Assembly (NCBI GenBank): GCA_027068455.1
Contig: JAMOSN010000024.1
Location: forward strand, 1 to 61,993
DNA length: 61,993 nucleotides
From: Sulfurimonas sp.
GTDB lineage: Bacteria; Campylobacterota; Campylobacteria; Campylobacterales; Sulfurimonadaceae
Reading direction: 5' to 3'
Position 1 is the first letter of the stretch, and the number at the start of each line of letters is the position of its first letter. The notes under the pieces are model-generated. The model was given only the letters and a program-made list of their open reading frames with translations, searched no databases and was not told where the DNA came from. Below, piece after piece: positions 1 to 56,705 of this stretch. Position numbers and translations under genes: made by a program.

Positions 1-2557
1 AAAGCGAATATCCTATGTTTTTGATATGCCCACTCTGCGCATCACCTACCAAATTCCCACCACCACGAATCTCTAAGTCATGATGTGCAAGGACGCTTCC
101 ACTTCCCAAAAAGGAGTTTGACTCTAGGGCTAGAAGCCGTTTTTTGGCTTCATCGGTGAGGTTGTTTTTATTTTGGACTATGAAGTAGGCAAACCCCTCA
201 TACGCTCCACGTCCCACACGCCCACGCAACTGGTGTAAGTCGGCTATACCGAATCTATCTGCTCCATCAACGATGATGGTATTAACGCGCGGCATATGGA
301 TACCACTCTCGATGATGCTAGTAGCCATCATCATATCGTACTCACCCGCTTCAAACTTTAAAAGCTCTTTTTCAGTTTGCACGGCTGAGATTTTGGAGTG
401 CAACATTAAAACACGCAACTCAGGCAAGAGTGCTTTAATCTCTCCCATTTTGATAGGCATATGGTCGATGGAGTTATGCACATAAAACACCTGTCCACCA
501 CGACGAAGCTCTCGTAAAATCACCTCTTTGATAAGTTTCTCATCATACTCTTTGACAAAGGTTCTCACCCCTTGACGCTCACTTGGCGGGGTGAGAAGTT
601 GGCTCATCGTTTTGATAGAGCTTAGTGCTTGATTGAGACTTCTTGGAATAGGAGTTGCACTCATAGAGAGCAGATGCACATTATGATAAAGCTCTTTTAT
701 CTTCTCTTTTTGCTTCACACCAAATTTATGCTCTTCATCGATAATGACGATACCGAGCTTCTTAAATGTCAGCCCAAAGAGGGTATGTGTCCCCACCACA
801 CAATCTATCTCACCACTTGCCAAACCTTTGATGATAGCATTTTTCTCTTTTGTTGTGACAAATCTGTCTAGTTTTGCATAACGAAGTCCCAGATCTTTGA
901 AACGCTCATCAACACTACGCCAGTGTTGTGCCGAGAGGAGGGTGGTTGGGACGATGAACGCTGATTGATAGCCTGATTTATAAGCGGCATAGATGGCATT
1001 GAGTGCTATTTCTGTTTTTCCAAACCCTACATCGCCACTTAAAAGCCTGTCCATAATGTGACCACTTGATATTTCGGTTAAAATCTCATCAACTGCTTGC
1101 GTTTGATCCTCTGTGTATTCAAATCCTGCGAGGGCTTGAAACTCTTTGAGCTCTTTTTTTGTGAGGGAGATTTTAGGTGCTTGGATAAGTGCACGAGCTG
1201 CAGCGGTATTGACGATTTGACCTGCAATCTCTAAGAGGCGTTTACGCACTTTGGCTTTGAGTTTGCCAAAGCTTCCTTTGCCGAGTCTATCAAGAACAGG
1301 AACACTTCCGCCACTTGCGATGTAGCGGTCGATAAAGTCAAGATTTTCAACAGGAAGAAGAATCTTGTCATCCCCTACATATTTGATAACAAGAAAATCT
1401 TTCACTCCTCCTAGGATTTCAGCCTGTTCTATCTTTTCAAATATCCCAACTCCATAATCCTCATGCACCACATAATCCCCAGCTTTAAGGTCATCTAAAA
1501 GGATGGAGCTTTTTCTGCGGCGACGTTTTTTACTTGGTTTGTTGAGTGAGATAACAAGTTCATCGGGGGTGAGGATATTTAAGATATACCCATCCTCTAT
1601 GATGGTATAGTTTTGAGTATCGTAGATGCCTGCTTGTTTGAGGACTGCCTTGTTTGCTGCGATGATGGTTGTTTTTTTATCTTTATGAACACGCAAGAGT
1701 GTTTCTACATTGGCAACCACCAACTCTTTTATGTTTTCATTCTCTTCTAAAACATCAAGCTCAAAATCTTCCCTTGGGATTTGAGGATTATTGATACCAA
1801 AGGCATCTTTGAGAAGATCTTCCATCGGATGGATATAGTTGGCAGTTTTGTTTGTTAAAAAGTTCTCTGCCAAATCATCGAGGTGCCAAAAACCCAAAGA
1901 GGCGATATCACGGGAGAGTGCATCAAATTCACTTTGCTCTATCTTTTCATTGAGGGTGTAAAACTGCCCCTCATCAAGGGCAAAAAAAGCACTCTCTATG
2001 GTGATGGACTCTATCTCATCCCCTACGGTGCGTTGCGATTCAAGCTCAAACGCTTTTATCTGCTCTATCTCATTGTCAAAAAGGGAGATACGGTAGGGCT
2101 TTTTGTGTGAGGGGATAAAAATATCTATGATGTCTCCACGATGGGAAATTTCCCCCTCAACCTGTACCATATCAACAAAAGTATAGCCCCAATGAAGCAT
2201 CTGTTCTTTAAAAGCTTTTAACTCTATTTGCGTACCAAATTCTAAAGTATGCTCCCCTAGCAGCTCTTTTTTAGGGAGAGGAAAAAGGAGTGTTTTTAGT
2301 GGTGAGATAACAAGAGGCTTTCTTTTTGCTTGATGGTAGAGGCGTAAAGCATGCAGGAGTTGATGGAGTTCTTCTTTAAAGGTACGAAGGTCATCTCCAA
2401 AAGCTGGACGAAAGTCTGGAAAAAGGATCACATCCTGTTTGAAAAACTTAGCGACTCCTTGGAGCTCAAGAGTCTCTTTGGTGTCTTCACAAATGAGAAT
2501 ATCTAACTTTTGTGAAGAGCTGTTTTTAAAGTGATTGTAGAGAATATGTTGTGACAT
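1..2557 (-). CDS. mfd: Transcription-repair coupling factor (3' end runs off the window)
   Basis: Not in the ORF track. ATG at 2557 reads MSQHILYNHFKN...; CarD-like RID motif (VVHEDYGVG), Walker A GDVGFGKT, DEEH, SATP and QLRGRVGR helicase motifs read from the minus strand. Confidence 0.95.
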   Translation of the reverse strand, partial: MSQHILYNHFKNSSSQKLDILICEDTKETLELQGVAKFFKQDVILFPDFRPAFGDDLRTFKEELHQLLHALRLYHQAKRKPLVISPLKTLLFPLPKKELLGEHTLEFGTQIELKAFKEQMLHWGYTFVDMVQVEGEISHRGDIIDIFIPSHKKPYRISLFDNEIEQIKAFELESQRTVGDEIESITIESAFFALDEGQFYTLNEKIEQSEFDALSRDIASLGFWHLDDLAENFLTNKTANYIHPMEDLLKDAFGINNPQIPREDFELDVLEENENIKELVVANVETLLRVHKDKKTTIIAANKAVLKQAGIYDTQNYTIIEDGYILNILTPDELVISLNKPSKKRRRRKSSILLDDLKAGDYVVHEDYGVGIFEKIEQAEILGGVKDFLVIKYVGDDKILLPVENLDFIDRYIASGGSVPVLDRLGKGSFGKLKAKVRKRLLEIAGQIVNTAAARALIQAPKISLTKKELKEFQALAGFEYTEDQTQAVDEILTEISSGHIMDRLLSGDVGFGKTEIALNAIYAAYKSGYQSAFIVPTTLLSAQHWRSVDERFKDLGLRYAKLDRFVTTKEKNAIIKGLASGEIDCVVGTHTLFGLTFKKLGIVIIDEEHKFGVKQKEKIKELYHNVHLLSMSATPIPRSLNQALSSIKTMSQLLTPPSERQGVRTFVKEYDEKLIKEVILRELRRGGQVFYVHNSIDHMPIKMGEIKALLPELRVLMLHSKISAVQTEKELLKFEAGEYDMMMATSIIESGIHMPRVNTIIVDGADRFGIADLHQLRGRVGRGAYEGFAYFIVQNKNNLTDEAKKRLLALESNSFLGSGSVLAHHDLEIRGGGNLVGDAQSGHIKNIGYSL

Positions 2558-2572
2558 TAGTTTCCTATGATG

Positions 2573-3828: not shown

Positions 3829-4966
3829 TATAACTCCTTAAAAAACTCTCCACAACACTAAAAGAACCAAAGACAAGGTAGTTTTTATCTTCTTGAGTCT
3901 CATTGAAAGAGCTATAGGCAATATTGAGCTCTTCTAATGTTGCATGGAGCTTTTGTGGTGTTTCGATTCGATCTTCATTTACATCAATAAGTGTAACATA
4001 GTCTATAATGGGTTGTAAGATCTCTAAGATTGCTTTATAGTTTTTGTCCTTGTAGGTATTGTAGATAAGGATATATTTTCTACCTTGAAGAGTTTTGGTA
4101 ATACTTTGTGCTGCAAGTGTATTATGCCCAACATCTAAAAGTATATTTTTTGTAAATGGTGTTAAACGCCCAAAGAGTTTGCTATCATTAAAGTGCTCAA
4201 GTTTATAAGGGATATTTAGTTTTTTAAGTGTTGCAATACTCAGGGCTAAATTGTCTTGCAAATACTCAGGTAGTTGGAGTTTTACTGCAATAGTTTGAAT
4301 ATTTACTCTATCTTGCGTGTTGAGTTGCGTGTTGTAGTTATAGCAAGTGATGTTTTTTTCTTTTTCAAGTTTACGTGCTACTTTTAGTACTTCTTGATGA
4401 AGTTGCTTACCAATAAGAGCTTCTTTTTGTATAGCATTGAGTTTGGTGGTAGCTATTTGTGTAATAGTATCACCTAAAAAAGCTTCATGGTCTTTATCTA
4501 TTGGTGTTACCAATGTCAGTATATTTTCAAAAACAGCAGTAGCATCATGTTCCCCACCAAGCCCTGCTTCAAGAACAATAAAATCACACTTTTGATACAC
4601 AACTATTGCAAGTAGTGTTGTGTACTCAAAATAGCTTAAAGAGTGAGCCATCTGTGGTGTTAAAAGTGCTAGAAGGTGCTGGTGTGCATCTTCGAGTGTT
4701 TGTGTGTCTATATTTTTACCATTGAGCCAAATACGCTCATTAAACTCTAAGATATGAGGCGAGGTGTAATGCCCTGTATTATAACCCATAGCATAAAGAG
4801 CAGAAGCTAAAAAACGACCAGTTGTCCCTTTGCCGTTAGTGCCTATAATATGGATAATTTTCGGTAGTTTGAGTTGCTCTTTTACACTCTCATAAGCACG
4901 AGGCATACGAGTGTAGTCTATAGTGTCATAATAAAGAGGTTTTGTATCTAAAAAATCACTTAGCAC
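3821..4966 (-). CDS. folC: Folylpolyglutamate synthase / dihydrofolate synthase
   Basis: GTNGKGT, YTSPH, EAGLGG, DVGHN motifs. Confidence 0.93.
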   Translation of the reverse strand: MLSDFLDTKPLYYDTIDYTRMPRAYESVKEQLKLPKIIHIIGTNGKGTTGRFLASALYAMGYNTGHYTSPHILEFNERIWLNGKNIDTQTLEDAHQHLLALLTPQMAHSLSYFEYTTLLAIVVYQKCDFIVLEAGLGGEHDATAVFENILTLVTPIDKDHEAFLGDTITQIATTKLNAIQKEALIGKQLHQEVLKVARKLEKEKNITCYNYNTQLNTQDRVNIQTIAVKLQLPEYLQDNLALSIATLKKLNIPYKLEHFNDSKLFGRLTPFTKNILLDVGHNTLAAQSITKTLQGRKYILIYNTYKDKNYKAILEILQPIIDYVTLIDVNEDRIETPQKLHATLEELNIAYSSFNETQEDKNYLVFGSFSVVESFLRSYNG

Positions 4967-6513: not shown

Positions 6514-6521
6514 AATCTCTC

Positions 6522-7034
6522 CTATTTTGCTCTTGAACCTTCAGCTGCTACTTTTGCAATAAATGCCGAGATAGCTTTTGCTGAAGAGTATTTTATCGCT
6601 TCAAAACGCTCTTGATCTGTTAAAACTGCATTGGGAACAACTGAAAAGTCATACGTTCCTTGTGTTGAGTATCTTTTTTGAATATCTTTTGTTTCACGAA
6701 GTATGTTAATACGAGTAGTTGCTCTATAGGCGATAACAAAACCATCTTGATTATACTGAATAGGTGTATAGGTTGGTTCAGAGATACCTAGTGTCAAAAA
6801 AGTAGTTGCGTGTTGTTTGTCGCTAAGAGATGCGTGAAAAACTCCCACTATGGCAACATCTATAGCATCTTTGATGATAACGGTATTTTCAGGATCCTCT
6901 GCTGATATAACAACGCTGGTATAGATTCTCTCCCCTACAACATTACGAGAATATTTTGCACTTGGCTTATAGCCACACCCTACCATTCCAATAAGCATAG
7001 ATGCCAAAAGAAGTGTAGAGAGCAGATATTTCAT
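6522..7034 (-). CDS. lptE: LptE-family LPS-assembly lipoprotein
   Basis: Lipobox MVGC followed by GY; immediately downstream of leuS. Confidence 0.75.
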   Translation of the reverse strand: MKYLLSTLLLASMLIGMVGCGYKPSAKYSRNVVGERIYTSVVISAEDPENTVIIKDAIDVAIVGVFHASLSDKQHATTFLTLGISEPTYTPIQYNQDGFVIAYRATTRINILRETKDIQKRYSTQGTYDFSVVPNAVLTDQERFEAIKYSSAKAISAFIAKVAAEGSRAK

Positions 7035-7038
7035 ATAT

Positions 7039-9492
7039 TTAACCCTTTACAACTAAGTTAACAAGTTTTTTAGGAACAACAATCTCTTTGATTATATCTT
7101 TGTTCTCTATCCATTTGCTAACTTCCTCTTTAGCAGCTGCTATGATATCCTCTTTTGAAGCATCAGCAGCCACTTCAATTTCACCACGTTTTTTCCCATT
7201 GACACTTACACCTAAAGAGATAGAATCTTCTACAAACACCTCTTCAATAATCTCTTGTTTGGTCATGTTTTTAAGGTTGAAGTATTTCTCACTAATCTCC
7301 CAACATGTATGAGGAATAATAGGCTCCATAATGGATGTAAAAATCCAATATGCTTCACTCCATACATCAGCATTGCTTTGTGCATTGAGCGCATTCATCG
7401 CTTCCATCACACCTGCGATGAGTGTGTTAAATGTGTAGCGTTCATTGTAAACATCCTCTGCACGTTTGAGTGCTTCATACACTTTTTTACGAGCAAATTT
7501 TTCCTCTTTAGAAAGCGTTGCGTGTTGTATGAGAGGTTTACTCTCACACGCAACAATATTATCAGCTCTGTCAAAAAATCTTCTGATAAATCTATATGCT
7601 CCCTCTACACCACTGTCTTGCCACTCTAGCTCTTGTGTTGGTGGTGCAGCAAAGAGGATAAACAACCGTGCAGTATCTGCACCGTATTGCTCTATGATAG
7701 CATCAGGATCGACAGTGTTGCCTTTTGATTTTGACATTTTTGCACCATCTTTTAAAACCATCCCTTGTGTTAGGAGATTATCAAACGGTTCATCAAAGTC
7801 TAAGTATCCTAAATCACGAAACACTTTTGTAAAAAAACGTGCATATAAAAGGTGGAGTATTGCGTGTTCGATACCACCGATGTAGTGGTCAACTGACATC
7901 CAGTATTTTATCTGCTCTTTTGAAAATGCTTCTTTTTCCCAGTTTTGTGGTGAAGCACAAAAGCGTAAGAAGTACCAGCTTGATTCTACAAAGGTATCCA
8001 TCGTATCTGTTTCACGAAGTGCATCTTTGCCACACTCAGGACATTTACAATGTTTCCATGTTGGGTGTTTTTCAAGCGGATTGCCTTCCCCCGTGATTTC
8101 TACATCTTCAGGCAGTGCGATAGGGAGGTTCTCTTTTTTCTCCATAACAAGTCCACAATCTTCACAATGGACAAACGGAATAGGTGCACCCCAGTATCGC
8201 TGACGAGAAACACCCCAGTCTTTGAGTTTATAGTTGGTTGTTTTTTTCCCTAAAGATTTTTGCTCAAAATACTCAATGATTTTTGGTTGTGCCTCTTTGG
8301 AGTCAAGCCCGTCAAACTGCTCAGAGTTAAACAATACGCCACTATCAGTAAAAGCTTTGTTCTCTAAATCAAGCTCACCCTCACGAGGTTTGATAACAGC
8401 TTTGATAGGAAGATCATATTTTTTTGCAAACTCATAATCTCTCTCATCATGGGCAGGAACTGCCATGACAGCGCCGCTACCATAATCCATCAGTACAAAG
8501 TTTGCACACCATACAGGGATTTTTTTCTTTGTAAGTGGATGGATAACATTTATGCCAAGCGGCAGACCAGATTTCTCTTTTTGTCTCTCAATTGAAGAGG
8601 CATTTTTCATGGCATTGATTTGTGCAATAACATCATCACTGAGGAGTTTATGTTCTATCATATAGGTGATGATTGCGTGTTCTGGTGCTAAAGCGGTATA
8701 GCTTACTCCATAGATAGTATCAGGGCGCGTTGTAAAAACATCAAAACCATCAAAAGTGTTGTTGAGTTTTGCTTTGGAGTTTTCATCAAAATAGAGATCA
8801 AATGCTAAACCGTTTGATTTTCCTATCCAGTTTTCCTGCATTGTAAGTACTTGCTTTGGCCAGCCGTTTTGAAGTTTTTTCAAATCTTTCAAAAGCTCGT
8901 CAGCATAGGCTGTAATCTTAAAATAGTACTGATTCATCTCTTTTTTAACAATTGGTGTATCACAACGCCAACAACATCCATCTACCACCTGCTCATTTGC
9001 CAAAACAGTCTGGTCATGTGGACACCAGTTAAGCATCCCTTTCTCACGATACAAAAGACCTTTATTGAACATATCGATAATAAATCCCTGTTCAAACTTT
9101 GTGTAAAGCTCATCACTTGTTGCAAGTTCACGTTTACGTGAAAAGGAAAACCCTAAGGAGTAAAACTCATTTTTCATATACTCTATGTTGTCATATGTCC
9201 ATGATTTTGGATGGCTTCCGTTTTTAATAGCGGCATTTTCCGCAGGCATACCAAAACTGTCAAATCCGATAGGGTGAAGTACATTTTTACCTTGTTGTCT
9301 ATGGTAACGTGCAAAAGCATCAGAGATGGAGTAGTTTCTTACATGCCCCATGTGGAGTCGTCCGCTTGGGAAGGGGAACATTGAGAGGATATACTTCTTC
9401 TCTTGTGTAAAATCTTCACTTGGTTCAAAACTTTCATGCTCTTTCCAATAGTTTTGCCATTTTGTTTCTATCTGTTTTGCGTTATATTCCAA
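7039..9492 (-). CDS. leuS: Leucine--tRNA ligase
   Basis: HMGH and KMSKS motifs, 817 aa. Confidence 0.98.
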
Positions 9493-9520
9493 TTCTTCTG
9501 TCCTAAATCAATAAAATTTT

Positions 9521-10830: not shown

Positions 10831-10832
10831 AA

Positions 10833-12740: not shown

Positions 12741-13949
12741 ATGAAAAAATTAAGAGATGATTTTTTACTCGCTTTTGCGACGGCAATTTTTTTTAGTGCT
12801 TTTATCTATTTGGCTGAGTATGGGATAGTACTGCCTTTTGTAAATTCATTGTTAGGAATCGGCGCACTTGCTTTGATGCTTTATATACCAAAACGTGCTG
12901 TTTTGATAGCTGGGTTTTTGATAGGGCTGTTGTGGTTCTACTGGATAGGATACAGTTTTGAGTATCAGGGTGTTGGATATATGACACCTATTGTAACATT
13001 TGGTTTTGGTGTGGTATATATGCTCTTTTTTGCTCCTATTGCGTTAACAAATAAACCTTATATACGAGCAATATTACTTTTTGGTTTGAGTTTTGTAGAG
13101 CCGTTTGACTGGAACTGGATGAAGATAGAATTGTTGTTTGTAGATAGCTATTTTGGTATTTTTAAGTATCAGTTGGCAATTATTTTAGCGGCTTTGAGTG
13201 TACCTTCTTTGATACCAGAAAAACGTTATAAATGGCTTCCGTTACTTTTGCTTGTTTTTGCTATACAAACACATTATGAACAGCCAGAAAAAGCCCCTTT
13301 AAACATTAAGTTGGTACAAACAGATATATTGCAAGAGAATAAATGGCTCCCAAGTGAGCTTTACCCTACAATGTTTATGATATTTAGAGAGATACAACAC
13401 GCAATAGATGAGGGGTATGATGTAGTAGTTCTTCCTGAATCAGTTGTTCCTCTGTTTATGAATAAAGCACCTAAAATCGAAGATAAACTTAAAGAGCTTT
13501 CTCATAAAATTACTATCATAGCAGGTACTTTGTTACTAGAAGATAATAAGAACTATAATGTGACTTATGTTTTTGAAAATGCAAAAGTGCAAGTTGCAAA
13601 AAAACTGGTACTTGTCCCTTTTGGAGAATATATCCCACTGCCAAAATTTGCTCAAAAATTTATCAATGATACTTTTTTCAGTGGGGCAAGTGATTTTGTT
13701 ACAGCCAAGCATCCAACTGATTTAAATATAAAAGGGATAAGATTTCGGAATGCGATTTGTTATGAGGCAACATGTGATGAGATATATGCTGGTGATGTAA
13801 AATATGTTATAGCTATAAGCAACAATGCATGGTTCGCTCCCTCTATCGAACCTACATTGCAAAGATTACTTATGAAGTTTTATGCACGAAAATATGGGGT
13901 GATAATCTACCATAGTGCTAACTATAAAGGGAGTGGGATAGTGCAATAA
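12741..13949 (+). CDS. lnt: Apolipoprotein N-acyltransferase
   Basis: TM N-terminus; PES, KLVLVPFGEY, ICYE nitrilase-fold triad motifs. Confidence 0.93.
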   Translation: MKKLRDDFLLAFATAIFFSAFIYLAEYGIVLPFVNSLLGIGALALMLYIPKRAVLIAGFLIGLLWFYWIGYSFEYQGVGYMTPIVTFGFGVVYMLFFAPIALTNKPYIRAILLFGLSFVEPFDWNWMKIELLFVDSYFGIFKYQLAIILAALSVPSLIPEKRYKWLPLLLLVFAIQTHYEQPEKAPLNIKLVQTDILQENKWLPSELYPTMFMIFREIQHAIDEGYDVVVLPESVVPLFMNKAPKIEDKLKELSHKITIIAGTLLLEDNKNYNVTYVFENAKVQVAKKLVLVPFGEYIPLPKFAQKFINDTFFSGASDFVTAKHPTDLNIKGIRFRNAICYEATCDEIYAGDVKYVIAISNNAWFAPSIEPTLQRLLMKFYARKYGVIIYHSANYKGSGIVQ

Positions 13950-14008: not shown

Positions 14009-16102
14009 ATGCTAAACCTTAAAAATCCAAACCTTTATAACAACCGTGAGCTTTCATGGTTGCAATTTAATACAAGAGTTCTTAAACAGGCTCAAGATGA
14101 ATCATTACCACTTTTGGAACGCTTGAAGTTTCTCGCTATTTATGGAACAAATTTAGATGAGTTTTATATGATTCGTGTAGCTGGTCTTAAAAAACTCTTT
14201 TCTGCTGGTATCATTGTTTCAGGAGCTGACAGACTTACCCCTTTGCAACAACTTCGTGAGATTCGTAAGTATCTCCATCAGGAGCAGCAGGTTGTAGAAC
14301 ATTGTCGTAGTGAAATTTTAAAGCAACTCGAAAAGGAGGGTATCTTTGTCAAAAGATATGATGAAGCGACCAATCAGGAAAAAAACAAACTTAATCAGTA
14401 CTTTAATGAAAATATCTATCCTGTAATTATTCCCATTGCAGTAGATGCGACACACCCTTTTCCACACCTTAATAACTTGAGTTTTGGTCTTATTGTCAAA
14501 CTTCGTGACAGTGATAATGATGCGATAGAGCGTTTTGGAATTATACGTGTTCCACGTGTACTGAATCGTTTTGTAGAGCTTGGAAATGGCGTTTATGTGC
14601 CTATAGAGAGTGTTGTTGCCAAACATGTTGATGAGCTTTTTCCTGGATATGATTTGATTAAGTATGCATCTTTCCGTGTAACGCGTAATGCTGATATCGC
14701 AATAGAGGAGGAGGAAGCTGATGACTTTATGGAGATACTTGAAGAGGGCTTAAAGCTTCGTAGAAAAGGGGAGATGGTTCGTCTTGAAGTGGGCAGTAAT
14801 GCTGATGATGAAATCATTAATTTTTTTAACCGCCACACCAATGTTTATAAAGATGATATTTACAAATTTCATACCTTTTTAAATCTTGCTTCCTTATGGC
14901 AAATAGTCAATAATAAAGATTTTGCTCACCTGCTTTTACCACCATTTAAACCAAAAAATCTTCCACCGTTTGACAATGGTGATAATATTTTTGCTATTTT
15001 GGAAAAACAAGATGTCTTTATGTATCATCCGTATGAGAGTTTTGAACCAATTGTTACATTGATTCAAGCTGCTGCAAAAGACCCAGATGTAGTCTCTATT
15101 AAAATGACACTTTATCGTTCAGGTACAAATTCCCCTATTGTCAAAGCGTTAATGGATGCGAGTGAAAGTGGTAAACAGGTAACTGTTATGGTTGAACTTA
15201 AAGCCCGTTTTGATGAAGAAAACAACCTGATCTGGGCAAAAGCACTGGAGAAATCGGGTGCACATGTTATTTATGGTATTCAAGGATTTAAAGTTCATGC
15301 CAAAGCAGCCCTTGTAACACGCAGAAAAAACGGTAAGCTTAAACAGTATGCACATTTGGGTACAGGAAATTATAATCCAGCTACAGCAAAGATATATACA
15401 GATATGAGTTATATGACAAGTAAAGATGTTGTTACCAATGATTTAACTCGTTTTTTTCACTTTTTAACAGGCTTTAGTAAAAAAGGGAAACTTAATGAGC
15501 TCTATATGGCACCATCACAAATCAAGCCAAAACTGCTCTCACTTATTCATAATGAAACAAGACAGGGAAGTGACGGACATATCATTGCTAAGGTTAACTC
15601 TTTGGTTGATGATGATGTGATTCGTGCTCTTTATAAAGCTTCTCAGGCTGGTGTAAAAGTAGAACTTATTGTTCGCGGTATATGTTGTTTAAAACCTGGC
15701 ATAGAGGGAGTGAGTGAAAATATCCGTGTTATCTCTATACTTGGAAAATATTTAGAACACGCAAGAGCATTCTATTTTAAAAATGATGCTTCACAGGTGT
15801 ATATCTCAAGTGCAGACTGGATGCCAAGAAACCTTGTTCGTCGTATAGAACTGCTTACTGCTGTAAAAGATGTTGATGCACAAAAGAAAATTATTCAGAT
15901 ACTTAAACTTCAATGTTCTGATAATGTTCTCGCTCATGAACTCCAAAGTGATGGAACATATGTTAAAGTCAAAGCTAGTGAGAGAAGCATCAATAATCAT
16001 AAACTTTTAGAAGATTATGTAAACCGTATAGCCAAAGCAACACGCAAAGAAACAAGTAGTCATATCAAACAGCTTGTTGAGCGTTTATTCATTGAGAGTT
16101 AA
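14009..16102 (+). CDS. ppk1: Polyphosphate kinase 1
   Basis: NRELSWLQFN, HPYESF, KVHAK, SADWM motifs. Confidence 0.97.
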   Translation: MLNLKNPNLYNNRELSWLQFNTRVLKQAQDESLPLLERLKFLAIYGTNLDEFYMIRVAGLKKLFSAGIIVSGADRLTPLQQLREIRKYLHQEQQVVEHCRSEILKQLEKEGIFVKRYDEATNQEKNKLNQYFNENIYPVIIPIAVDATHPFPHLNNLSFGLIVKLRDSDNDAIERFGIIRVPRVLNRFVELGNGVYVPIESVVAKHVDELFPGYDLIKYASFRVTRNADIAIEEEEADDFMEILEEGLKLRRKGEMVRLEVGSNADDEIINFFNRHTNVYKDDIYKFHTFLNLASLWQIVNNKDFAHLLLPPFKPKNLPPFDNGDNIFAILEKQDVFMYHPYESFEPIVTLIQAAAKDPDVVSIKMTLYRSGTNSPIVKALMDASESGKQVTVMVELKARFDEENNLIWAKALEKSGAHVIYGIQGFKVHAKAALVTRRKNGKLKQYAHLGTGNYNPATAKIYTDMSYMTSKDVVTNDLTRFFHFLTGFSKKGKLNELYMAPSQIKPKLLSLIHNETRQGSDGHIIAKVNSLVDDDVIRALYKASQAGVKVELIVRGICCLKPGIEGVSENIRVISILGKYLEHARAFYFKNDASQVYISSADWMPRNLVRRIELLTAVKDVDAQKKIIQILKLQCSDNVLAHELQSDGTYVKVKASERSINNHKLLEDYVNRIAKATRKETSSHIKQLVERLFIES

Positions 16103-16112
16103 GGAGAGTTGC

Positions 16113-16637
16113 GTGTTACACAAATATAAGAACATTGTACCAAAAATAGGTGAGGGAACATGGGTTGCACCCTCTGCCGATGTGATTGGCGAAGTTACAT
16201 GTGGGAAAGATTGCTCTATCTGGTTTGGATGTGTTGTAAGGGGTGATGTGCACTATATAAAAATAGGGGATAGAACCAATATTCAAGACCTCTCTATGCT
16301 ACATGTAACACACTATAAAAATGGTGATAAATCAACTGGAAATCCTACTGTGATAGGTGATGATGTTACGATTGGTCATCGTGTTATGCTTCATGGTTGT
16401 ACCATTGAGGATGCGTGTCTTATTGGGATGAGTGCAACTATTTTAGATGGTGCGGTTATTGGAAAAGAGAGCATTGTAGGTGCTGGCGCACTTGTAACAA
16501 AAAACAAAATTTTCCCACCACGAAGTCTTATAGTGGGGTCTCCTGCTAAAGTTATACGAGAACTCAGTGAGGATGAGGTGGCAGAACTGTATGCTTCTGC
16601 CAAACGGTATGTAGAGTTTAAAAGGGATTATGAGTAA
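16113..16637 (+). CDS. Gamma-class carbonic anhydrase family protein
   Basis: Hexapeptide repeats, VVRGD, NIQD, GHRVMLHG; AGGAG RBS at 16102-16106 before GTG at 16113. Confidence 0.9.
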   Translation: MLHKYKNIVPKIGEGTWVAPSADVIGEVTCGKDCSIWFGCVVRGDVHYIKIGDRTNIQDLSMLHVTHYKNGDKSTGNPTVIGDDVTIGHRVMLHGCTIEDACLIGMSATILDGAVIGKESIVGAGALVTKNKIFPPRSLIVGSPAKVIRELSEDEVAELYASAKRYVEFKRDYE

Positions 16638-16649: not shown

Positions 16650-17828
16650 TTATGTTCTATAATCTGCATTGATCTCCACATATTTATATCCGAGATCGCA
16701 TCCATACGCTCTAAAAGAGCCATCACCTAAACCTAAATCACAAGAGATAGTAAAAGAGTCTTTTTTCATAACTTGTGCAGCTTTGACCTCCATAGCTTCA
16801 TCAAAATAGAGATTACCTTTATCATAAACACAAACATCATCAAAAGAGATACTTAAAAGTGCTTCATCGGCTTTAGCACCGCTTGCTCCCACCGTTGAAG
16901 CGATACGCCCCCAGTTTGGATCTTCACCGTAAAGTGCAGTTTTGACTAAAAGTGAGTTAGAGAGTGCTTTTGCTACTACTTCAGCTTCTTTATCAGATAC
17001 AGCGCCTGTGACTTTGTAAGTAACAAGTTTGGTGGCACCCTCTCCATCACGTACCATCTCACGTGCTAAAAATGTCATAATCTCATAAAGTGCTTTATTG
17101 AAAGCTTCTTTATTGTATATACCAGATTTTTTATTGCTTAAAAGCATAACAGTATCATTGGTTGAGGTGTCACCGTCCACACTTGCTGCATTGAATGTGA
17201 GTTGCGTGTTAGCATTTAAAAGTGTTTGCATCTCCTCTTTTGTAATATCTGCATCTGTTGTGATAAAACATAACATCGTTGCCATGGCAGGGTTAATCAT
17301 TCCTGCCCCTTTTGCTATTGCACCAATGTGGAAATTGCTACCATCTTCTAGCTCTACTTTATATGCAATCTTTTTGGCAAAACTGTCTGTTGTCATAATC
17401 GCCTGTGCTGCTGCATCAGAGTTGCGTGTTGTAAGATTAAAAAGTTTTGTGCCGCTAATGATTTTATCTTTTGGCAAACGAACACCAATAACACCAGTGG
17501 AACTCATAACAGGGTTGGTAATATTAGCAGGCAAGGCTGATAGAATCTCATCAATATCCTCAATACCCGCTTTACCTGTCATCGCATTGGCATTCTTAGA
17601 GTTAATAAGGACAAAATTGGTTTGAAAATCTCCTTTATTGCGAAAATGGCGAATAGGGGCTGCTGTCATTTTATTTGTTGTAAAGACAGAAGCTATATCA
17701 CAAAGAGTGTCACTGTATATAAATGCCATATCTTTGGCACCATCAGGTTTGAGACCTGCACTTACACCATCAGCAAAGAAACCATCAGCAGCACATACAC
17801 CACTCTCTATTTTTGTTAATTTATACAA
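16650..17828 (-). CDS. argJ: Ornithine acetyltransferase / N-acetylglutamate synthase
   Basis: KGAGMINPAMATML, DTSTND, RDGEGAT motifs. Confidence 0.97.
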   Translation of the reverse strand: MYKLTKIESGVCAADGFFADGVSAGLKPDGAKDMAFIYSDTLCDIASVFTTNKMTAAPIRHFRNKGDFQTNFVLINSKNANAMTGKAGIEDIDEILSALPANITNPVMSSTGVIGVRLPKDKIISGTKLFNLTTRNSDAAAQAIMTTDSFAKKIAYKVELEDGSNFHIGAIAKGAGMINPAMATMLCFITTDADITKEEMQTLLNANTQLTFNAASVDGDTSTNDTVMLLSNKKSGIYNKEAFNKALYEIMTFLAREMVRDGEGATKLVTYKVTGAVSDKEAEVVAKALSNSLLVKTALYGEDPNWGRIASTVGASGAKADEALLSISFDDVCVYDKGNLYFDEAMEVKAAQVMKKDSFTISCDLGLGDGSFRAYGCDLGYKYVEINADYRT

Positions 17829-21568: not shown

Positions 21569-22213
21569 ATGATAAAAGTTGCTCCAAGTGTTCTTTCTGC
21601 AGATTTTGGAAATTTGGCTCGTGATGTACAAGAGATATGTGAAAGTGGCTGTGATTTAGTCCATGTAGATGTGATGGATGGGCATTTTGTACCCAATCTT
21701 ACTATTGGACCAGTCGTCGTTGAGGCAATTGCAAAAGCAGCAACCAAGCCATTAGATATCCATCTAATGGTGCAAAACAACACTTTTTTTGTTGAACTTT
21801 TCGCACCGCTGAAACCTGAATATATCTCTTTTCATATTGAAGAGGAGAAACATCCTCACAGACTTATTCAAAAGATTCGTTCGTATGGTATTAAACCAGC
21901 AGTTGTGTTAAATCCAAATACTATTCCAGAAGAGTTAGAGTATATTTTAGGTGATTTGGATATGGTGCTTTTGATGAGTGTAAACCCTGGTTTTGGAGGA
22001 CAAAGTTTTATCGATACAGTACTTCCAAAAGCAAAAAAACTTGATGCTATGAGAAAGCGTTTAAACCCTGCGTGTTTGATTGAAGTTGATGGTGGGGTTA
22101 GTGATAAAAACATACAAGCCTTAAAAGAGGTGGGTGTCGATGTTGTTGTAGCAGGTAGTTATGTGTTTAAACACGCAAGTAAAAAAGAAGCAATAGAGAG
22201 TTTACAAATCTAA
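21569..22213 (+). CDS. rpe: Ribulose-phosphate 3-epimerase
   Basis: HVDVMDGHFVPN, MSVNPGFGGQ, EVDGG. Confidence 0.98.
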   Translation: MIKVAPSVLSADFGNLARDVQEICESGCDLVHVDVMDGHFVPNLTIGPVVVEAIAKAATKPLDIHLMVQNNTFFVELFAPLKPEYISFHIEEEKHPHRLIQKIRSYGIKPAVVLNPNTIPEELEYILGDLDMVLLMSVNPGFGGQSFIDTVLPKAKKLDAMRKRLNPACLIEVDGGVSDKNIQALKEVGVDVVVAGSYVFKHASKKEAIESLQI

Positions 22214-35177: not shown

Positions 35178-36663
35178 GTTTATCCTTCAATGATTTAATT
35201 TCAAAACAATCCTCTTCATAAAGGATATCTGTATAATCTGTTGCAAGATTTAATGCATCCTCAAGTAGATGAGAATTATTAAAACATAAATCTATTATAA
35301 CAGAGTATTTTGCCTGTATATCAACAATATCATTAAAAGTTGCTAATTTAATATTGTCCAAATTCTGATTGATAAGGTTTTTATCTCCATCTATCAAGCT
35401 GATTGGACAGGGTATAAAAGAGGTAAGATCATCATGCAGTTTCTCCTTTGACAAAGAGTTGCTAATAACTATTATCTCTTTAGAATCATACTTCTTGCAT
35501 GCTGATGCAATGAGATGAAGAACTTTCGCATGAGGGGTTGTTAAATGAAATCGAACTTCTTTTTTAGGGTTTTGATAGTTGTTTTCTAATGTATAACTAA
35601 TTGGTAAATCTTCATTATTGACAACAAGCAGTGTTTTATCTTTTTGAATATGTTGAAGATAGCGTATGAAAAAATCTGATAAAAGATATGAATCATCACA
35701 CATAATAATATCAGCAACATCAAAACTTTTTTTCATAAGTTTTTTGTCTATATATAAGATATCATCAAGTTGTTTTAATTTTAGTTTGTGGAGATGTTTA
35801 TTTACAAGTTCTATAGGTGTGACTATCTCAATTGAGTTAAGATTAATCTCTATAATTGCGTGTTCTATAATATTTAAAAATTTTTGTTGTAGTATATCTT
35901 TTGAGAGTATGGTAGGTTTAAGAATAATAACTTTTTTATCTGGGTTATTTAAAACCTCTGTAATAGCTTTTAATAGTAAAAGATTTGTTTTTCCACTCTT
36001 ATGTTTGCCTGTTAGGTTAAATGTATATTGCAACTCTTGATCCAAGAACTCACGTTGTTCTAAAGAACAAAAATGTAAAGCATCATTATCAATAATGGTG
36101 TATTGTATAAGTAAATTACCTAAAACAGTATTGGTATCAGGAAGGTTTGGATCTTCTTTGGCAATACTTTGCAGTTTTTTAAAAATATCAGCTTTTTGCA
36201 TATCTTTAAATATGATGCTATCTTCTGGCAAATATTCTTTTATACTTTTATCTAATCTATTATATTCTTCATAAGTAAGATTTTCTAAAAGTAAACAGTT
36301 GTATAAAGAAACACCGTCATTATGGATAAGCTCATTGAATTTTTGTTTAATAATATTTTGCAAAAAGTTGTAAGAAAGAGAGTTTTGAGATGGTTTACTC
36401 TGCTCTTCTCTTTCAATTTTAGCGTTTTGAAGTTCATTAAAACTCCATTGTTTTTTTTCAAAAATATACAATCCCCTTGTTTTGTCAAAAATAATTAAAG
36501 GAACTCTATATTTGTGAGTATGATGATAGATGGTGACTTCATCAAATACAAACAAATCACTGTATTTTGATAATGATTTTACATTTTTTAAAAGTTCAGA
36601 TTCCTCTTTATTCTTTGAGGGAACTTTGTTTTTTGTAAAGAAAGATTTTATTGAAAAATTCAT
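35161..36663 (-). CDS. Hypothetical protein with NERD-like N-terminus and degenerate P-loop helicase-like domain
   Basis: RGLYIFEKK (NERD-like), SLEQ...GKHKSGKT Walker A, IIMCDD Walker B-like. Confidence 0.6.
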
Positions 36664-40693: not shown

Positions 40694-43600
40694 TTAAGGC
40701 CAAAGAGGCTCAATATTATTATCTCCTGCATTGAGGAAGAAGTCAGTATGATCAGTCACTTTTGAAACATTCCAGCCACTAAGATCGTGTCCAGAAAATG
40801 CACTAGCCCCATAAAACATTCTATACATATCAGTTACATTGGATGTATTCCACAATGTTATATCTTGATCAAATGCTTTTGCATTATAAAACATACTATT
40901 CATTGTTGTGACATTTTCAGTATTCCAGTATTTAATATATTGATTAAATACTGTAGCATCTTTAAACATAAGTGCCATATCAGTGACTTTACCTGTATCC
41001 CAGTTACCGATATCTTGATTGAAAGCTGCTGCGTTATAAAACATACTATTCATATTTGTTACTTTGGAAGTTATCCAGTTGCCGATATCTTGATTAAATG
41101 CGGTTGCATCTTTAAACATTGATGTCATATTTTCAACATTGGATGTATCCCAGCTACTAATATCTTGGTTAAATGCTTTTGCATTATAAAACATGCTACT
41201 AAACTTGGTTACTTTCGATGTGTCCCAATTGTTAAGTGTACCATTAAACCTGATTGCATTTTTGAACATATAACTTATATCAGTTACATTAGAGATATCC
41301 CATTGTGCAAGATTTTGGTTAAAAGCTGCTGCATTATAAAACATATATTTCATGGTAGTAACTTTTGCAGTATCCCAGTTACCAATATCTTGATTAAAAT
41401 GGTGTGCATCTTTAAACATAGCGTTCATATCAGTAACATGTGTAGTATTCCAGTTGCCAATACCTCGATTAAATGCTTCTGCCCAGTAAAACATTCCAGA
41501 CATATTTCTGACATTGCCTGTGTTCCATGTTCCTATATATTGATTAAAATGTGTTGCATATTTAAACATACTGCCCATATGTGTCACTGAAGATGTATTC
41601 CATTTATCAAGTGGTTGATTAAAATTTGTTGCACTATAGAACATACTTGACATATCAGTTACATTAGTGGTGTTCCAGTCATTGATATCTTGGTTAAAAA
41701 GGGGGGCGCTTTTAAACATACCACTCATATCAGTAACATTATGTGTATCCCATTGCCCTATATCTTGATTAAAGACAGCTGCACCATAAAACATATCATT
41801 CATATCTGTGACATTGGAAGTGTTCCAGTTTGAGATATCTTGATTGAAAAGAGCAGTGTTTTTAAACATAAGCGACATATTCGTTACTTGAGATGTATCC
41901 CATTTACTGATATCTTGGTTAAATGCCAAAGCACCATAAAACATACTAGACATATCGGTAACATTAGAGGTGTTCCAATCACTTATATCTTGATTAAATG
42001 AAGCAGTAGATTTAAACATACTAGATATATCAGTAACATTGGATACATCCCATTGCCCTATGTCTTGGTTAAATGCCAAAGCTCCATAGAACATACCTCT
42101 CATTGTTGTAATGGTACTTGTATCCCAATGACTGATATCTTGGTTAAAAGAACTCGCATCAGTGAACATATAATACATCGAAGTAGCTGTCGATAAATTT
42201 GGAGAATCGGTAGCTGCTCCTCCTGCATTATTGAGATTTTTGCATCCATAAAAAGCACCTTGCATTGAGCTCCATTGTCCTGCACCCCATTGGTTGATAC
42301 CTGTAATTTTTTCTTTATCCCCTTCATTGTTAAAATATATTCTTGGAAAGCCTGTATATTTTCCAGAATTATCTTTAATAACAACTTTATATTCACCAGC
42401 ACTGGTATAGTTACAGGTATAGTTGCCATCAACTGCTGTTGCTTCGTCTACACCATCATTATCGCAGTCGATATTGTAATTGTATATTTCACCGAATTTT
42501 GTGGGAACTATGAACTGTGTATCTGATGAGGTACCGTTGTTGTCAGTCTGTACAGTTATAATAAAACTTTCTAAAAGGATATCTGTAACAGTAATATGAA
42601 AGGTTTTAGAAACATTATGCTCTCCATCTGTAAGTGTGATTTGCACCACATAGATATTATTTGTATCACTGTCTAATGGTTGATTGTAATTTGGAGCGGT
42701 GATAAACTCTAAAATATTATTGTTAATTGTAAAAAGATCTTTATCATCTCCACCAGTGAGTGACCAACTCAAAGAATCACCATCTAAATCAATCCCTTGT
42801 AGTGCTGTTACTTTCGTATGTGCTTCAGATATTGATTGATCTGCTGTTACAATGGTTGGCGTTATATCATTAATATTGAGTACATAAATTGTAAAGTTTT
42901 GTGTATGATAGTGTGTGCCATCAGTAACATTGATATCGACCATATATGTATTGTTTGTATCACTGTCTGTTGGATGTTCATAATCATGAGCACTAAGAAA
43001 GGAGAGCTCACCAGTACTGCTGTTAAGGGAAAACATATCTTTGTCATCCCCTCCAACAATACTCCATGTAAGAGAATCCCCCTCTAGGTCTCTGGCCTGT
43101 AGTGTGGTAATAGATGTCATATTTTCTAAGACAGTAAGATTTTCTTCAGATGTTATCACTAGGTTTGGTAATGCTGTTGTACCTTGATGAATATTAGTAA
43201 GTAAGGTGTCAAGTTGCGTGTTATAAGTGGTATTGAGCATAGGTTTGTATGATGGAACTGTATAAACCAATACATCTCTTACATTTATTTTTCCGTTATT
43301 ATCTATATCATAAACTATAGATTGTGCTGTTGTATCAAGTAAAGACTCAAAAGTGGTTGCATTAAAGTCGTGTGTAATATTTCTCTCCACAAGTTCGTAA
43401 AGAATTTCACTCGCCAATGTGACCTTAAGATTGCTTCCAACATATTTGATATCATTTTGATTAGCGACAGCGCGTATTTTACCGTTGTTTAGAGTATAGT
43501 TCTCATCTAAAATACCGTCATCATCAAAATCCCAATCCTCCCCGCCAACCACTTCGTATATATAAAAACGATTGAGTTCTAGTTCATTGATATGACTGTT

Positions 43601-43945: not shown

Positions 43946-44653
43946 ATGAATGATACAGTATTTACAAAACCGATAAAAAAACAGTTTGAGTTTGATGAAG
44001 AGGTTGCTGCCGTTTTCGATGATATGCTTGAGCGCAGTGTTCCTTTTTATAAAGAGAGTCAAAAAATTACACAGTTTTTTGTACTAAAAAACTTAGATGA
44101 AGATGGTGTGCTTTATGATTTGGGATGTTCTACAGCATCATTACTTTTAAATATCCATAGAAATTTGCAAAAACACGCAACGTTGATAGGTCTTGATAAT
44201 TCAGAAGCGATGTTGCAACAGGCTCGAAGAAAAATTGAAGCTTACAATGCTGCCATAGAGGTTGTGTATGGTGATATTTTGGAGTATGAGTATAAAACAG
44301 CTGATGTATTTGTGAGTAACTATACTCTTCAGTTTATTCGTCCTTTGGTAAGAGAGGAATTAGTTAAAAAAATAGCTGCCTCTTTAAAAAAAGAGGGTGT
44401 GTTTATTTTTAGTGAAAAAGTTATTTCTCATCATCCAAAACTCAACAAAGATCTTATAGAGTGTTACTACGATTTTAAAAAAGAGCAAGGTTATAGTGAG
44501 TATGAGATTATGCAAAAACGTGAAGCATTAGAGAATGTTTTGGTTCCTTATAGTGAAGAGGAAAATATTATCATGGCAAAGAATGCCGGGTTTAGTCATT
44601 GTGAAGTGGTGTTTCGGTGGGCAAACTTTGCTACTTTTATAGCGATTAAGTAA
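43946..44653 (+). CDS. cmoA: Carboxy-S-adenosyl-L-methionine synthase
   Basis: [39 protein letters not shown]. Confidence 0.95.
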
Positions 44654-48473: not shown

Positions 48474-49352
48474 GTGATGCAAAATTCTCCAATCTCAAAA
48501 CTTGTTGTTGAAGAGAGAGAATTTTTTGTAAAAAGGGATGAACTTATAGATCCTTTTTTAGCAGGTAACAAGTATAGAAAACTTTATACACTCCTAGAAA
48601 CTCCTAAAAACAGATATACCACCATTATCTCTTATGGTGGTACACAATCGAATGCTATGCTTGCTCTAGCTGCATTATGTCATCAAAAAGGGTGGCAATT
48701 TATCTACTACACTAAACAACTTTCTAACACGCAACAACTCTCGCAAGAGGGGAATTATGCCCAAGCACTCTCTCTTGGTATGCAACATAAAGAGATCGCT
48801 AATGAGCTCTACAGAGAATTTATCGCCTCTTTATCCATCCTCACTGATGATACAACAACCTGTATAGTGGATCAAGGAGGTGCAGATAAAATTGCTTATG
48901 ATGGGTTGCGTGTTTTAGCTAATGAGATACGAGAACAAAGATATCTTTTGCCATCTTCACTCAAAGCAGTTGCTACACCTTCAGGTACGGGAACAACAGC
49001 GCTTTATTTGGCACTTAATCTTCCTGAATTTACAGTATATACAACTCCTGTTATCGGTGATATTACTTATCTAGAAACACAAATGCAAGCACTCTCTCCT
49101 ATCCCTCCCAATCTTATTATTTTACAACCAGAAAAAAAATACCATTTTGCAAAACCTTATAAAGAGTTTTTTGAAATATATAAAAAACTTAAACACGCAG
49201 GTATAGAGTTTGATCTTTTATATGCCCCTTTGATGTGGAAAATGTTGTTAGAAAAAACACAAGAAGAGATCCTTTATATACATAGTGGTGGTATCACAGG
49301 AAATAAAACTATGCTAAAGAGATATATAAAAAAGTTTAGTGTATCATTGTGA
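48474..49352 (+). CDS. ACC deaminase / D-cysteine desulfhydrase family PLP enzyme
   Basis: KRDE..GNKYRKL, GGTQSN, SGTGTT, IHSGG. Confidence 0.88.
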   Translation: MMQNSPISKLVVEEREFFVKRDELIDPFLAGNKYRKLYTLLETPKNRYTTIISYGGTQSNAMLALAALCHQKGWQFIYYTKQLSNTQQLSQEGNYAQALSLGMQHKEIANELYREFIASLSILTDDTTTCIVDQGGADKIAYDGLRVLANEIREQRYLLPSSLKAVATPSGTGTTALYLALNLPEFTVYTTPVIGDITYLETQMQALSPIPPNLIILQPEKKYHFAKPYKEFFEIYKKLKHAGIEFDLLYAPLMWKMLLEKTQEEILYIHSGGITGNKTMLKRYIKKFSVSL

Positions 49353-55362: not shown

Positions 55363-56705
55363 TGATGCAGAGTGATACAATTGCAGCAATAGCCACCGCT
55401 CATGGCGTTGGTTCTATTGCTATTATACGACTTAGTGGTGATGATGCATTAGATATTGCCAAAAAACTTACAAAAAAAGAAAATCTTTCCCCTCGACACG
55501 CAACACTTACAAATATCTACAACACGCAAGATGAATTAATAGATGAAGCTATTGTTATCTATTTTCAGGCACCTCGCTCTTTTACTGCTGAAGATGTAGT
55601 GGAAATTCAGTGTCATGGTGGTTTTATTGTAGCACAGTCTATTTTAGAAGCAACACTCCATGCAGGAGCTAGGCTTGCCAACGCTGGAGAATTTTCTAAA
55701 CGGGCATTTTTTAATGGTCGCATAGATTTAAGTGAAGCAGAAGCGATAAGTCAACTTATCGAAGCAAAGAGTGAAGATGCTGCGAAAATCTTAGCAAAAC
55801 AGATGAAAGGCTCTCTTAAAGAGTTTATAGAAAAAGTGCGTGATGAGATTATCCATATCTTGGCATATTCTGAAGTAACTATTGATTATGCTGAAGAGGA
55901 TTTACCTGAAGATTTGGTGGCTCAGATTCAAGCAAAACTAGATGAACTTTATACACTTTTAGAAAAGACACTCCAAGCATCCAAATCACGTCAAGGGTTG
56001 ATGCAAGGGTTTCGAGTTGCCATTGTAGGCAAGCCAAATGTGGGTAAAAGTTCTTTGTTAAATGCACTTTTAAATTATAACCGTGCTATTGTTAGTGATA
56101 TAGCAGGGACAACACGCGATACTATTGAGGAACAGGTGAAGATTGGCACACACCTTATTCGTATTGTGGATACGGCTGGGATTCGTGAAGCTAATGACGA
56201 GATAGAACGCATCGGGATAGAACGCTCTTTGGAAGCGATAGAACAAGCAGATATTGTAGTAACTGTTTTTGATGCTTCTCGTCAGGCTGATGATGAAGAC
56301 AGAGCTATAGTGGAACTTTTACATAAACACGCAAGTGATAAAGAAGTGATTGTTGTCAAAAATAAAATAGATCTGCCGCAGCAGTTTGAACTTGATACAA
56401 TAGAGTTCGATTTGGAACTTAATGCAAAAGACAATGCTCTCTCTTTAATCGAAAAACTTCAAGAGATTATGGACAGAAGTAATACAAGTGATGAGATTAT
56501 GCTTATATCAACGCGTCAGATTAATGCTGTTGCCAACACAATGCAAAATATTAAAGAAGCATATGAACCTTTGGAGTCCCAAGAGCTTGAGATATTCTCC
56601 TTTCATCTTAATGAAGCGATAAAAGAGATGGCAAGTATCACAAGACCATTTGATAATGATGAGATGCTTGATAAAATGTTTGGCTCTTTTTGTTTAGGAA
56701 AATAG
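55362..56705 (+). CDS. mnmE: tRNA modification GTPase
   Basis: GKPNVGKSS, GTTRD, DTAG, NKID, C-terminal FCLGK. Confidence 0.97.
   Translation: MMQSDTIAAIATAHGVGSIAIIRLSGDDALDIAKKLTKKENLSPRHATLTNIYNTQDELIDEAIVIYFQAPRSFTAEDVVEIQCHGGFIVAQSILEATLHAGARLANAGEFSKRAFFNGRIDLSEAEAISQLIEAKSEDAAKILAKQMKGSLKEFIEKVRDEIIHILAYSEVTIDYAEEDLPEDLVAQIQAKLDELYTLLEKTLQASKSRQGLMQGFRVAIVGKPNVGKSSLLNALLNYNRAIVSDIAGTTRDTIEEQVKIGTHLIRIVDTAGIREANDEIERIGIERSLEAIEQADIVVTVFDASRQADDEDRAIVELLHKHASDKEVIVVKNKIDLPQQFELDTIEFDLELNAKDNALSLIEKLQEIMDRSNTSDEIMLISTRQINAVANTMQNIKEAYEPLESQELEIFSFHLNEAIKEMASITRPFDNDEMLDKMFGSFCLGK

Follow-up and report, generated by a model that had tools for sequence, protein, structure and literature searches.

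What purpose is served by a nine-letter word that returns again and again within one stretch of bacterial DNA? The question is raised by 61,993 nucleotides of Sulfurimonas sp. (contig JAMOSN010000024.1; the window, by which we mean the whole of this stretch), in which the 9-mer TTGCGTGTT is dispersed. A preliminary description of the window had offered two answers, a signal for the uptake of self-DNA or a site for a chromosome-organizing protein. We therefore followed the word through the genome of this species (G000, a metagenome-assembled genome (MAG) of 1.545 Mb in 119 contigs, 76% complete, 35.5% GC), a closed congener (G075), and a comparison of 194 Sulfurimonas genomes. The feature is real, genome-wide, and genus-wide, and its genomic hallmarks make it likely, in our judgment, that TTGCGTGTT and the related words of the genus are DNA uptake sequences, that is, self-recognition tags. 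To our knowledge, such tags have so far been reported only in Neisseriaceae and Pasteurellaceae. We found no description of such words for Sulfurimonas or Epsilonproteobacteria in the literature, although supplementary k-mer survey tables may hold one.

The word in the window and in the genome

The window holds 24 exact copies of TTGCGTGTT, 14 on the forward and 10 on the reverse strand, at the places first described (Table 1). The earlier estimate of about 0.4 copies by chance agrees with dinucleotide shuffles (mean 0.43, maximum 2), and 19 of the 24 copies have G or C as the base 5′ of the word, as had been noted. All 11 one-mismatch copies reported before exist, but that list was incomplete: there are 20 in the window against about 14 expected (44 against 14.85 with the exact copies included), so this class is not enriched there. 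Where five frame contexts had been claimed, all six frames turned out to be in use.

Genome-wide, TTGCGTGTT occurs 819 times in G000 (405 forward, 414 reverse; 530 per Mb) and is the top word at k = 7–10. Against Markov nulls of order 0, 3, and 4, the ratio of observed to expected copies (O/E) is 77, 31, and 9; with orders 5 and 7 it drops to 2.0 and 1.05, since the motif dominates and inflates its own sub-words. The high-order null was dropped as uninformative and codon shuffles were used instead. With gene calls made for this analysis (1634 genes, 94.9% coding), 791 copies lie in coding sequences (CDSs), 20 are intergenic, and 8 are partial. Synonymous-codon shuffling within genes leaves 59 ± 6 copies expected in CDSs against 796 seen, and shuffling of codon order leaves 11. 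As the enrichment outlasts synonymous shuffling, a peptide motif is ruled out as its cause, as proposed from the window. NTQ is the most enriched tripeptide of G000 (367 versus 44.5 expected, 8.3-fold) and QHA is enriched 4.6-fold; NTQ occurs 61 times in G075 versus 51 expected.

A flanking logo carries information only at −1 (G 0.50, C 0.35), −3, and +10 (G 0.43), which gives the consensus S-TTGCGTGTT-g without AT-rich tracts. The flanks are uninformative outside −3 to +11, and the logo is flat beyond +11. CTGCGTGTT is the sole outstanding one-mismatch variant (155 genome-wide versus 14 expected), and variants at the sixth position are the rarest (3, 2, and 2 copies). Two-unit tandem TTGCGTG arrays at 11 places in G000 (e.g. 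C34:11838 and C60:5577) give overlapping copies; an origin from a heptamer microsatellite was rejected, as these 11 arrays are all there are. At the copies so marked in Table 1, independent contigs obtained in other studies' runs show 0 differences, and this agreement excludes an assembly error. Both labeled best-matching metagenome runs are from hydrothermal vents.

Among 1216 orthologs of G000 and G075 (median identity 78%), a gap lies nearby in only 18 of the 597 aligned word sites. The remaining 579 align without one, and about 4 of the 9 bases differ from the ortholog. Gain of the word by synonymous or conservative change, a route considered in the preliminary description, would fit the leuS copy at 7860, which is made of synonymous codons; 497 of the 579 sites (86%) carry amino-acid differences. 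The word is dense in poorly conserved genes (0.98 per kb in orthologs of 45–60% identity, 0.17 per kb above 90%), the same pattern as is described for uptake sequences (PMC2817400). The word of the congener stands in register at only 24 of the 579 sites, a figure that has no codon-aware control and is not taken as support. Conservation of single sites was likewise set aside: the TGCGTG core persists in 13% of the aligned sites, and control hexamers do so in 5–28%.

Close inverted TGCGTGTT pairs number 22 in G000, 16 in CDSs and 6 in gaps between convergent genes (0.046 expected per order), with none in codirectional or divergent gaps. All six convergent-gap pairs have one order, AACACGCA...TGCGTGTT, and one closes the cts operon directly behind ctsF (C108:17530). 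These hairpins would terminate transcription. Viral contigs gave 28 hairpin matches, 26 of them without a further copy of the word. A short inverted pair of the GCGTTT word has a common position in three loci (L264:17192, L265:16613, and L270:17205), with no gene 3′ end near.

Table 1. Copies of TTGCGTGTT and of its enriched variant in the window, with the peptide read through each copy and the open reading frame (ORF) that contains it.
Feature	Position	Strand	Context
TTGCGTGTT copy	410..418	-	L-R-V, ORF 2-2557(-)
TTGCGTGTT copy	1688..1696	-	L-R-V, ORF 2-2557(-)
TTGCGTGTT copy	4313..4321	+	N-T-Q, folC-like ORF 3821-4966(-); identical in independent contig
TTGCGTGTT copy	4325..4333	+	N-T-Q, folC-like ORF 3821-4966(-); identical in independent contig
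TTGCGTGTT copy	6806..6814	+	Q-H-A-T, ORF 6522-7034(-)
TTGCGTGTT copy	7518..7526	+	Q-H-A-T, leuS; in 0/13 ortholog rows listed; no indel
TTGCGTGTT copy	7860..7868	+	E-H-A-I, leuS; conserved peptide, word built from synonymous codons
TTGCGTGTT copy	8673..8681	+	E-H-A-I, leuS
TTGCGTGTT copy	13396..13404	-	Q-H-A-I, ORF 12741-13949(+)
TTGCGTGTT copy	15756..15764	-	E-H-A-R, ppk-like ORF 14009-16102(+); identical in independent contig
TTGCGTGTT copy	16039..16047	-	A-T-R-K, ppk-like ORF 14009-16102(+); identical in independent contig
TTGCGTGTT copy	16109..16117	+	S-C-V-L, ORF 16074-16637(+); sixth frame
TTGCGTGTT copy	17202..17210	+	N-T-Q, argJ-like ORF 16650-17828(-); identical in independent contig
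TTGCGTGTT copy	17422..17430	+	T-T-R-N, argJ-like ORF 16650-17828(-)
TTGCGTGTT copy	22170..22178	-	K-H-A-S, ORF 21569-22213(+)
TTGCGTGTT copy	25268..25276	+	S-T-R-N, fabF-like ORF 24679-25896(-)
TTGCGTGTT copy	29062..29070	+	V-A-C-F, ORF 28644-29705(+)
TTGCGTGTT copy	35856..35864	+	E-H-A-I, ORF 35161-36663(-)
TTGCGTGTT copy	43214..43222	+	N-T-Q, ORF 40694-43849(-)
TTGCGTGTT copy	44172..44180	-	K-H-A-T, ORF 43946-44653(+)
TTGCGTGTT copy	48726..48734	-	N-T-Q, ORF 48474-49352(+)
TTGCGTGTT copy	48906..48914	+	L-R-V, ORF 48474-49352(+)
TTGCGTGTT copy	55521..55529	-	N-T-Q, ORF 55362-56705(+)
TTGCGTGTT copy	56326..56334	-	K-H-A-S, ORF 55362-56705(+)
CTGCGTGTT variant	15316..15324	-	the one enriched one-mismatch class; also at 22068(+), 32371(+), 49192(-), 51358(-)

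Related words across the genus

Further candidate words came out of de novo screening of 80 named cts loci plus 19 others of 10–20 kb and were then counted genome-wide, the count tables being read by eye. The exact word is confined to this species: G000 contains STTGCGTGTT 697 times, and none of the other 193 genomes has more than 15 copies. Congeners do carry related words at a comparable density, so TTGCGTGTT is not the one-off that it had appeared to be from the window but one dialect of a genus-wide family. TGCGTGAG has 630–985 copies in 8 of the 194 genomes (951 versus 41 expected in 2.0 of the 2.03 Mb of contig 1 of G075) and a weak signal of 95–137 copies in G138, G208, and G015. The record titled Sulfurimonas indica NW8N (L202), a cultured strain, has 4 copies of TGCGTGAG and 17 of TGCGTG in 21.7 kb. 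YKGCGTTT reaches at least three times its reversed control in 44 genomes (up to 4580 versus 586); G135, at 2.8 times, falls outside the 44, yet is labeled TTT in the trees. GGCATGTG has 117–1675 copies, at least 10 times control, in 25 genomes, and GGATGTAA has 567 and 618 copies in two; TTACGTGC was found 698 times versus 49 in one of only five genomes searched. Altogether at least 81 of the 194 genomes bear a word, none is strongly two-class, and all words are strand-balanced. They have a loose core in common (GCGTG, GCGTT, GCATG, ACGTG, or GGATG). On a 70-row tree of a LeuS segment, many of whose branches are weak, the six word classes are clustered, with 15 changes required versus 37.1 when shuffled. 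Outside the genus, where only two words were sought, YKGCGTTT reached the threefold level in 0 of 144 sampled genomes (maximum about 2.3-fold) and TTGCGTGTT in 0 of 24.

Three GCGTTT genomes, G208, G015, and G131, are neighbors of the TGCGTGAG clade and still have 137, 95, and 63 copies of TGCGTGAG, possibly the trace of a dialect switch. SCGATAG was not counted as a dialect, as it reaches only 3.1, 2.2, and 1.9 times control in G007, G179, and G076; it may belong to one more dialect, but no full word for it was identified. TCCCGATGG in L219 was rejected as a local repeat. AGATGCTA/AGCATCTA recur 11–16 times within 20 kb in four closed genomes (L293, L294, L295, and L297) and may be a local repeat or another dialect. 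Finally, an epibiont metagenome (run X7) contains a relative at about 85–95% identity to positions 1–20000 of the window, nearer than any congener genome compared.

Competence genes, a candidate receptor, and rival readings

Codon-aware enrichment, lack of polarity, hairpins, dialects, and competence genes are the genomic hallmarks that support reading the words as uptake signals. On this reading, uptake would be sequence-biased and molecular drive would lie behind the enrichment. The Cts competence pilus would carry a surface receptor with a preference for DNA that bears the word of the species, and repeated biased uptake with homologous recombination would fix word-improving mutations where the protein tolerates them, a molecular drive such as is described in PMC7811141. 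Paired copies might secondarily have been put to use as bidirectional terminators, and replacement of the receptor pilin might, more speculatively, switch or silence a dialect.

The machinery for such a process is present in G000, with a full cts operon (C108:8169-17531; secretin, ATPases, and platform, 40–90% identical to G075), ComE (C71), an uninterrupted ComEC (C74), and DprA (C42). The genome also carries two clusters with no close ortholog in G075, one type II secretion-like (C52:2470-8166) and one for an MSHA-like pilus (C89:1020-5769).

For the receptor, we tentatively put forward a minor pilin of FimU/FimT fold encoded upstream of an rRNA operon. In G075, a 219-residue N-methyl pilin is encoded between comE and an rRNA operon. 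Its structure model (predicted local distance difference test 88) matches FimU (Z 11.3, root-mean-square deviation 2.8 over 121 residues) and EpsH (Z 10.8), the next family scoring 4.4; Foldseek E-values are 0.14 or worse. The nearest Atlas cluster is named 'pilus assembly FimT family', and FimT binds DNA in other bacteria (PMC12616744). ComP, to which the pilin may nonetheless be related, is absent among the fold matches listed, and a sequence search of the PDB returned matches to the pilin N-terminus only. The pilin has matches in 132 of the 194 genus genomes and in 93 of 151 from the whole order, and it frequently sits at the end of a contig; in 6 of 49 loci, those with rRNA in view, the gene (L100:2208-2867(-) and homologs) lies upstream of rRNA. 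Because of this position the pilin is likely under-recovered in MAGs. In G000, contig C4 ends just upstream of the expected pilin position, an assembly gap, and scanning metagenomes outward from where C4 stops gave nothing beyond an equally long contig.

In a tree of 67 pilins, the first 30 of which were picked by similarity to that of G075, one clade (Shimodaira–Hasegawa-like approximate likelihood ratio 97) holds 20 of 22 GCGTTT genomes, 2 of 2 GCGTGAG genomes, 0 of 18 GCATGTG genomes, and 5 unlabeled genomes. One of the five, G187, turned out to carry a related word, GTTACGTGCG; three have only SCGATAG at 1.9–3.1 times control, and G137 has nothing. G138 nests among the TGCGTGAG species, yet has 111 copies only and a pilin from another clade, and the weak-signal genomes G211 and G135 have out-of-clade pilins as well. 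The pilin clusters with dialect, but not beyond phylogeny. A Cj0683-like pilin next to priA was rejected as receptor for want of a clear tie: in a tree limited to the best 30 of 39 matching genomes, the GAG, TTT, and CAT labels need 4 changes each.

A number of observations weigh against uptake signaling, or against this pilin as its receptor. No searched word is seen in 113 of the 194 genomes, which may hold other words. Since comE and comEC also occur in two motif-negative genomes, the machinery is compatible with the uptake reading without proving it. In the comEC gene of G075 (G075:C1:254863-255948, L171), a TGA stands in frame close to codon 362 of some 427, which may reflect recent loss of competence or a sequence error. 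Only 2.4% of the copies in G000 (20 of 819) are fully intergenic in a genome that is 5.1% intergenic; 35–65% of the known uptake sequences lie outside ORFs in Haemophilus influenzae and Actinobacillus pleuropneumoniae as well as Neisseria meningitidis (PMC2817400), and G000 has no such large intergenic share. In G075, 0 of 9 close inverted pairs lie in gene gaps, so the hairpin hallmark is not general. Depletion in recently acquired DNA gives a mixed picture: in G075, a low-GC (28–33%) island of 63 kb (G075:C1:1120000-1183000) has 0 copies of TGCGTGAG versus 30 expected, but in G000 the 224 genes without a match in G075 hold 0.54 copies per kb versus 0.55 in orthologs. The pilin gene, for its part, was not found in G000 by tblastn and genome search, nor in the motif-rich, 99%-complete G027, and it is present in 132 genomes though 113 show no searched word. 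Of the 27 genomes in the pilin clade, 4 are without a strong word. The number of label changes is the same on the pilin tree as on that of the species (3 versus 3 and 6 versus 6), and an independent-pairs test of pilin against dialect was not significant. The globular domain carries a net acidic charge, averaging about −3, unlike ComP and FimT, and the pilin adjoins comE in only 2 of 49 loci, for which reason comE–pilin synteny was dropped as an argument. The G075 island also carries glycosylation genes, an integrase, and restriction–modification genes.

The rival that survives best, although unlikely, is a sequence-biased process within the cell (such as a bias of repair or recombination steered by a methyltransferase, the proposal made for HIP1) or methylated uptake tags like RAATTY, a methylated self tag being already in use in Campylobacterota (PMC10046745). 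CATG and GGATG, short methyltransferase-like cores, are present in several words, HIP1 copies are mostly intragenic, as are the Sulfurimonas words, and fast turnover of restriction–modification genes could explain dialect switching. Methyltransferase sites are, on the other hand, shorter than these contiguous, non-palindromic words of 8–10 bp. Four methyltransferase families were sought in the 76%-complete G000, type IIG families not among them, with no match to PF01555, PF02086, or PF00145 and none over the cut-off to PF02384; the motif-rich, 100%-complete G069 has no match to PF01555 or PF02086. RAATTY words are not enriched in G000 (O/E 1.01 for AAATTT and 0.46 for GAATTC), and CATG is avoided (0.5). 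G000 also avoids CCGG (O/E 0.18), GTATAC (0.21), GGCC (0.22), and GATC (0.38), as well as GAATTC (0.46), though no DNA methyltransferase of the four families sought was found in it.

The site of an abundant nucleoid or chromosome-organizing protein whose specificity drifts between species, the second option of the preliminary description, has been weakened to the point of being improbable. In its favor, the word is spread evenly along the chromosome: by synteny to G075, all 20 chromosome bins hold 0.34–0.77 copies per kb. Spacing is clumped and not exponential (coefficient of variation 1.69). Against it, there is no restriction to ori or ter, no helical or long-range periodicity stood out (the best period, 99 bp, is at about the level of the codon-phase peaks), and the word switches between congeners. 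About 800 sites lie inside ORFs, most of those aligned with amino-acid differences (497 of 579), and sites turn over, with the word of the congener in register at only 24 of 579. Selection on single weak binding sites hardly yields such a pattern, whereas molecular drive does (PMC7811141).

A replication-polarized signal of the Chi or KOPS type, for AddAB or FtsK, would suit a G-rich, non-palindromic 8- to 9-mer that is found genome-wide, but it is largely refuted by polarity and very improbable. No strand skew is seen in G000 (311 leading versus 303 lagging, by synteny to the closed G075 chromosome), and in G075 the leading share of its own word TGCGTGAG is 54.5%, lower than the 62% reached by permuted words. 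Hairpin pairs and 30- to 77-fold enrichment are also atypical for Chi. Without polarity or clustering, the Chi, KOPS, matS, and parS readings all fail. The last group of readings (bias in codons or peptides, a mobile repeat of small size, an artifact of assembly or of adapters), which a MAG in 119 contigs and a high-order Markov O/E near 1 might suggest, is refuted by the synonymous shuffle (59 versus 796), the empty flanks, the indel-free orthologs, the agreement of independent runs, and a closed congener that behaves alike, and has a negligible chance of being right.

If the words are uptake sequences, a third system, in free-living Campylobacterota, would mean that uptake specificity can arise independently of host-DNA-rich mucosa. 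The dozens of natural gains, switches, and decays in one genus would allow molecular drive to be tested against selection and the evolution of specificity to be followed. A bolder version, which we can entertain without favoring it, is a third, independently evolved self-DNA uptake code whose six or more dialects switch at species level upon exchange of a FimT-like pilin, walling species off by 'mating-type' words. Such words would separate co-occurring vent and sediment species, rewrite proteomes, and decay after receptor replacement. The finding would also have a bearing on where species boundaries lie among vent communities, and Sulfurimonas could become genetically tractable through addition of the right word.

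Comparison with known systems

Sites of the matS and parS type are palindromic and confined to the ter or ori region, unlike TTGCGTGTT, which is non-palindromic and present in all 20 chromosome bins. A closer parallel is the cyanobacterial HIP1 (GCGATCGC), which is described as hyper-abundant, mostly intragenic, variable between lineages, and of unresolved function; HIP1 is palindromic, however, and tied to orphan methyltransferases, whereas the Sulfurimonas words are non-palindromic and no methyltransferase common to the motif-bearing genomes G000 and G069 was found among the families sought in them (four and two). Campylobacter jejuni belongs to the same order, has the Cts pilus, ComE, and ComEC, and discriminates self-DNA at uptake (PMC10046745). 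Its RAATTY is a palindromic 6-mer read via methylation, in contrast to the long, asymmetric, at least 30-fold enriched words of Sulfurimonas.

The DNA uptake sequences (DUS) of Neisseriaceae, GCCGTCTGAA and its dialects with the receptor ComP, are likewise contiguous, non-palindromic words of 9–12 nt that occur in hundreds to thousands of copies on both strands, with dialects in line with phylogeny, inverted pairs at the ends of genes, and tripeptide inflation (PMC12616744, PMC3630211, PMC2817400). Unlike DUS, whose inner core is CTG (PMC12616744), TTGCGTGTT holds no CTG on either strand. The Sulfurimonas words further have far fewer intergenic copies and terminator pairs, their dialects differ at up to half of positions in one genus, one dialect being confined to a single species, and the model of the candidate pilin matches FimU and EpsH, with ComP not among the fold matches listed.

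Pasteurellaceae use the uptake signal sequences (USS) AAGTGCGGT and ACAAGCGGT, with the predicted receptor PpdA/ComN. Like TTGCGTGTT, USS has a 9-bp core at about 500–800 copies per Mb, mostly in ORFs and in poorly conserved genes (PMC7811141, PMC2817400). It is also absent from rRNA and newly acquired DNA (PMC7811141, PMC2817400). In G075, TGCGTGAG has zero copies in a 5.1-kb rRNA stretch; the G000 MAG has no rRNA match. The TGCG 4-mer common to TTGCGTGTT and the H. influenzae USS had been remarked on at the outset. It does not indicate homology, as TTGCGTGTT lacks both the essential GCGG inner core and the two AT-rich downstream tracts of USS (PMC12616744). One Sulfurimonas genus holds at least six words, compared with two USS types in the whole family Pasteurellaceae. 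Lacking the CTG and GCGG cores, the Sulfurimonas words are members of neither DUS nor USS. Their uptake hallmarks, combined with cores unrelated to either, therefore most likely mark a third uptake-signal family, one that probably evolved independently and has an unusually fast turnover of dialects.

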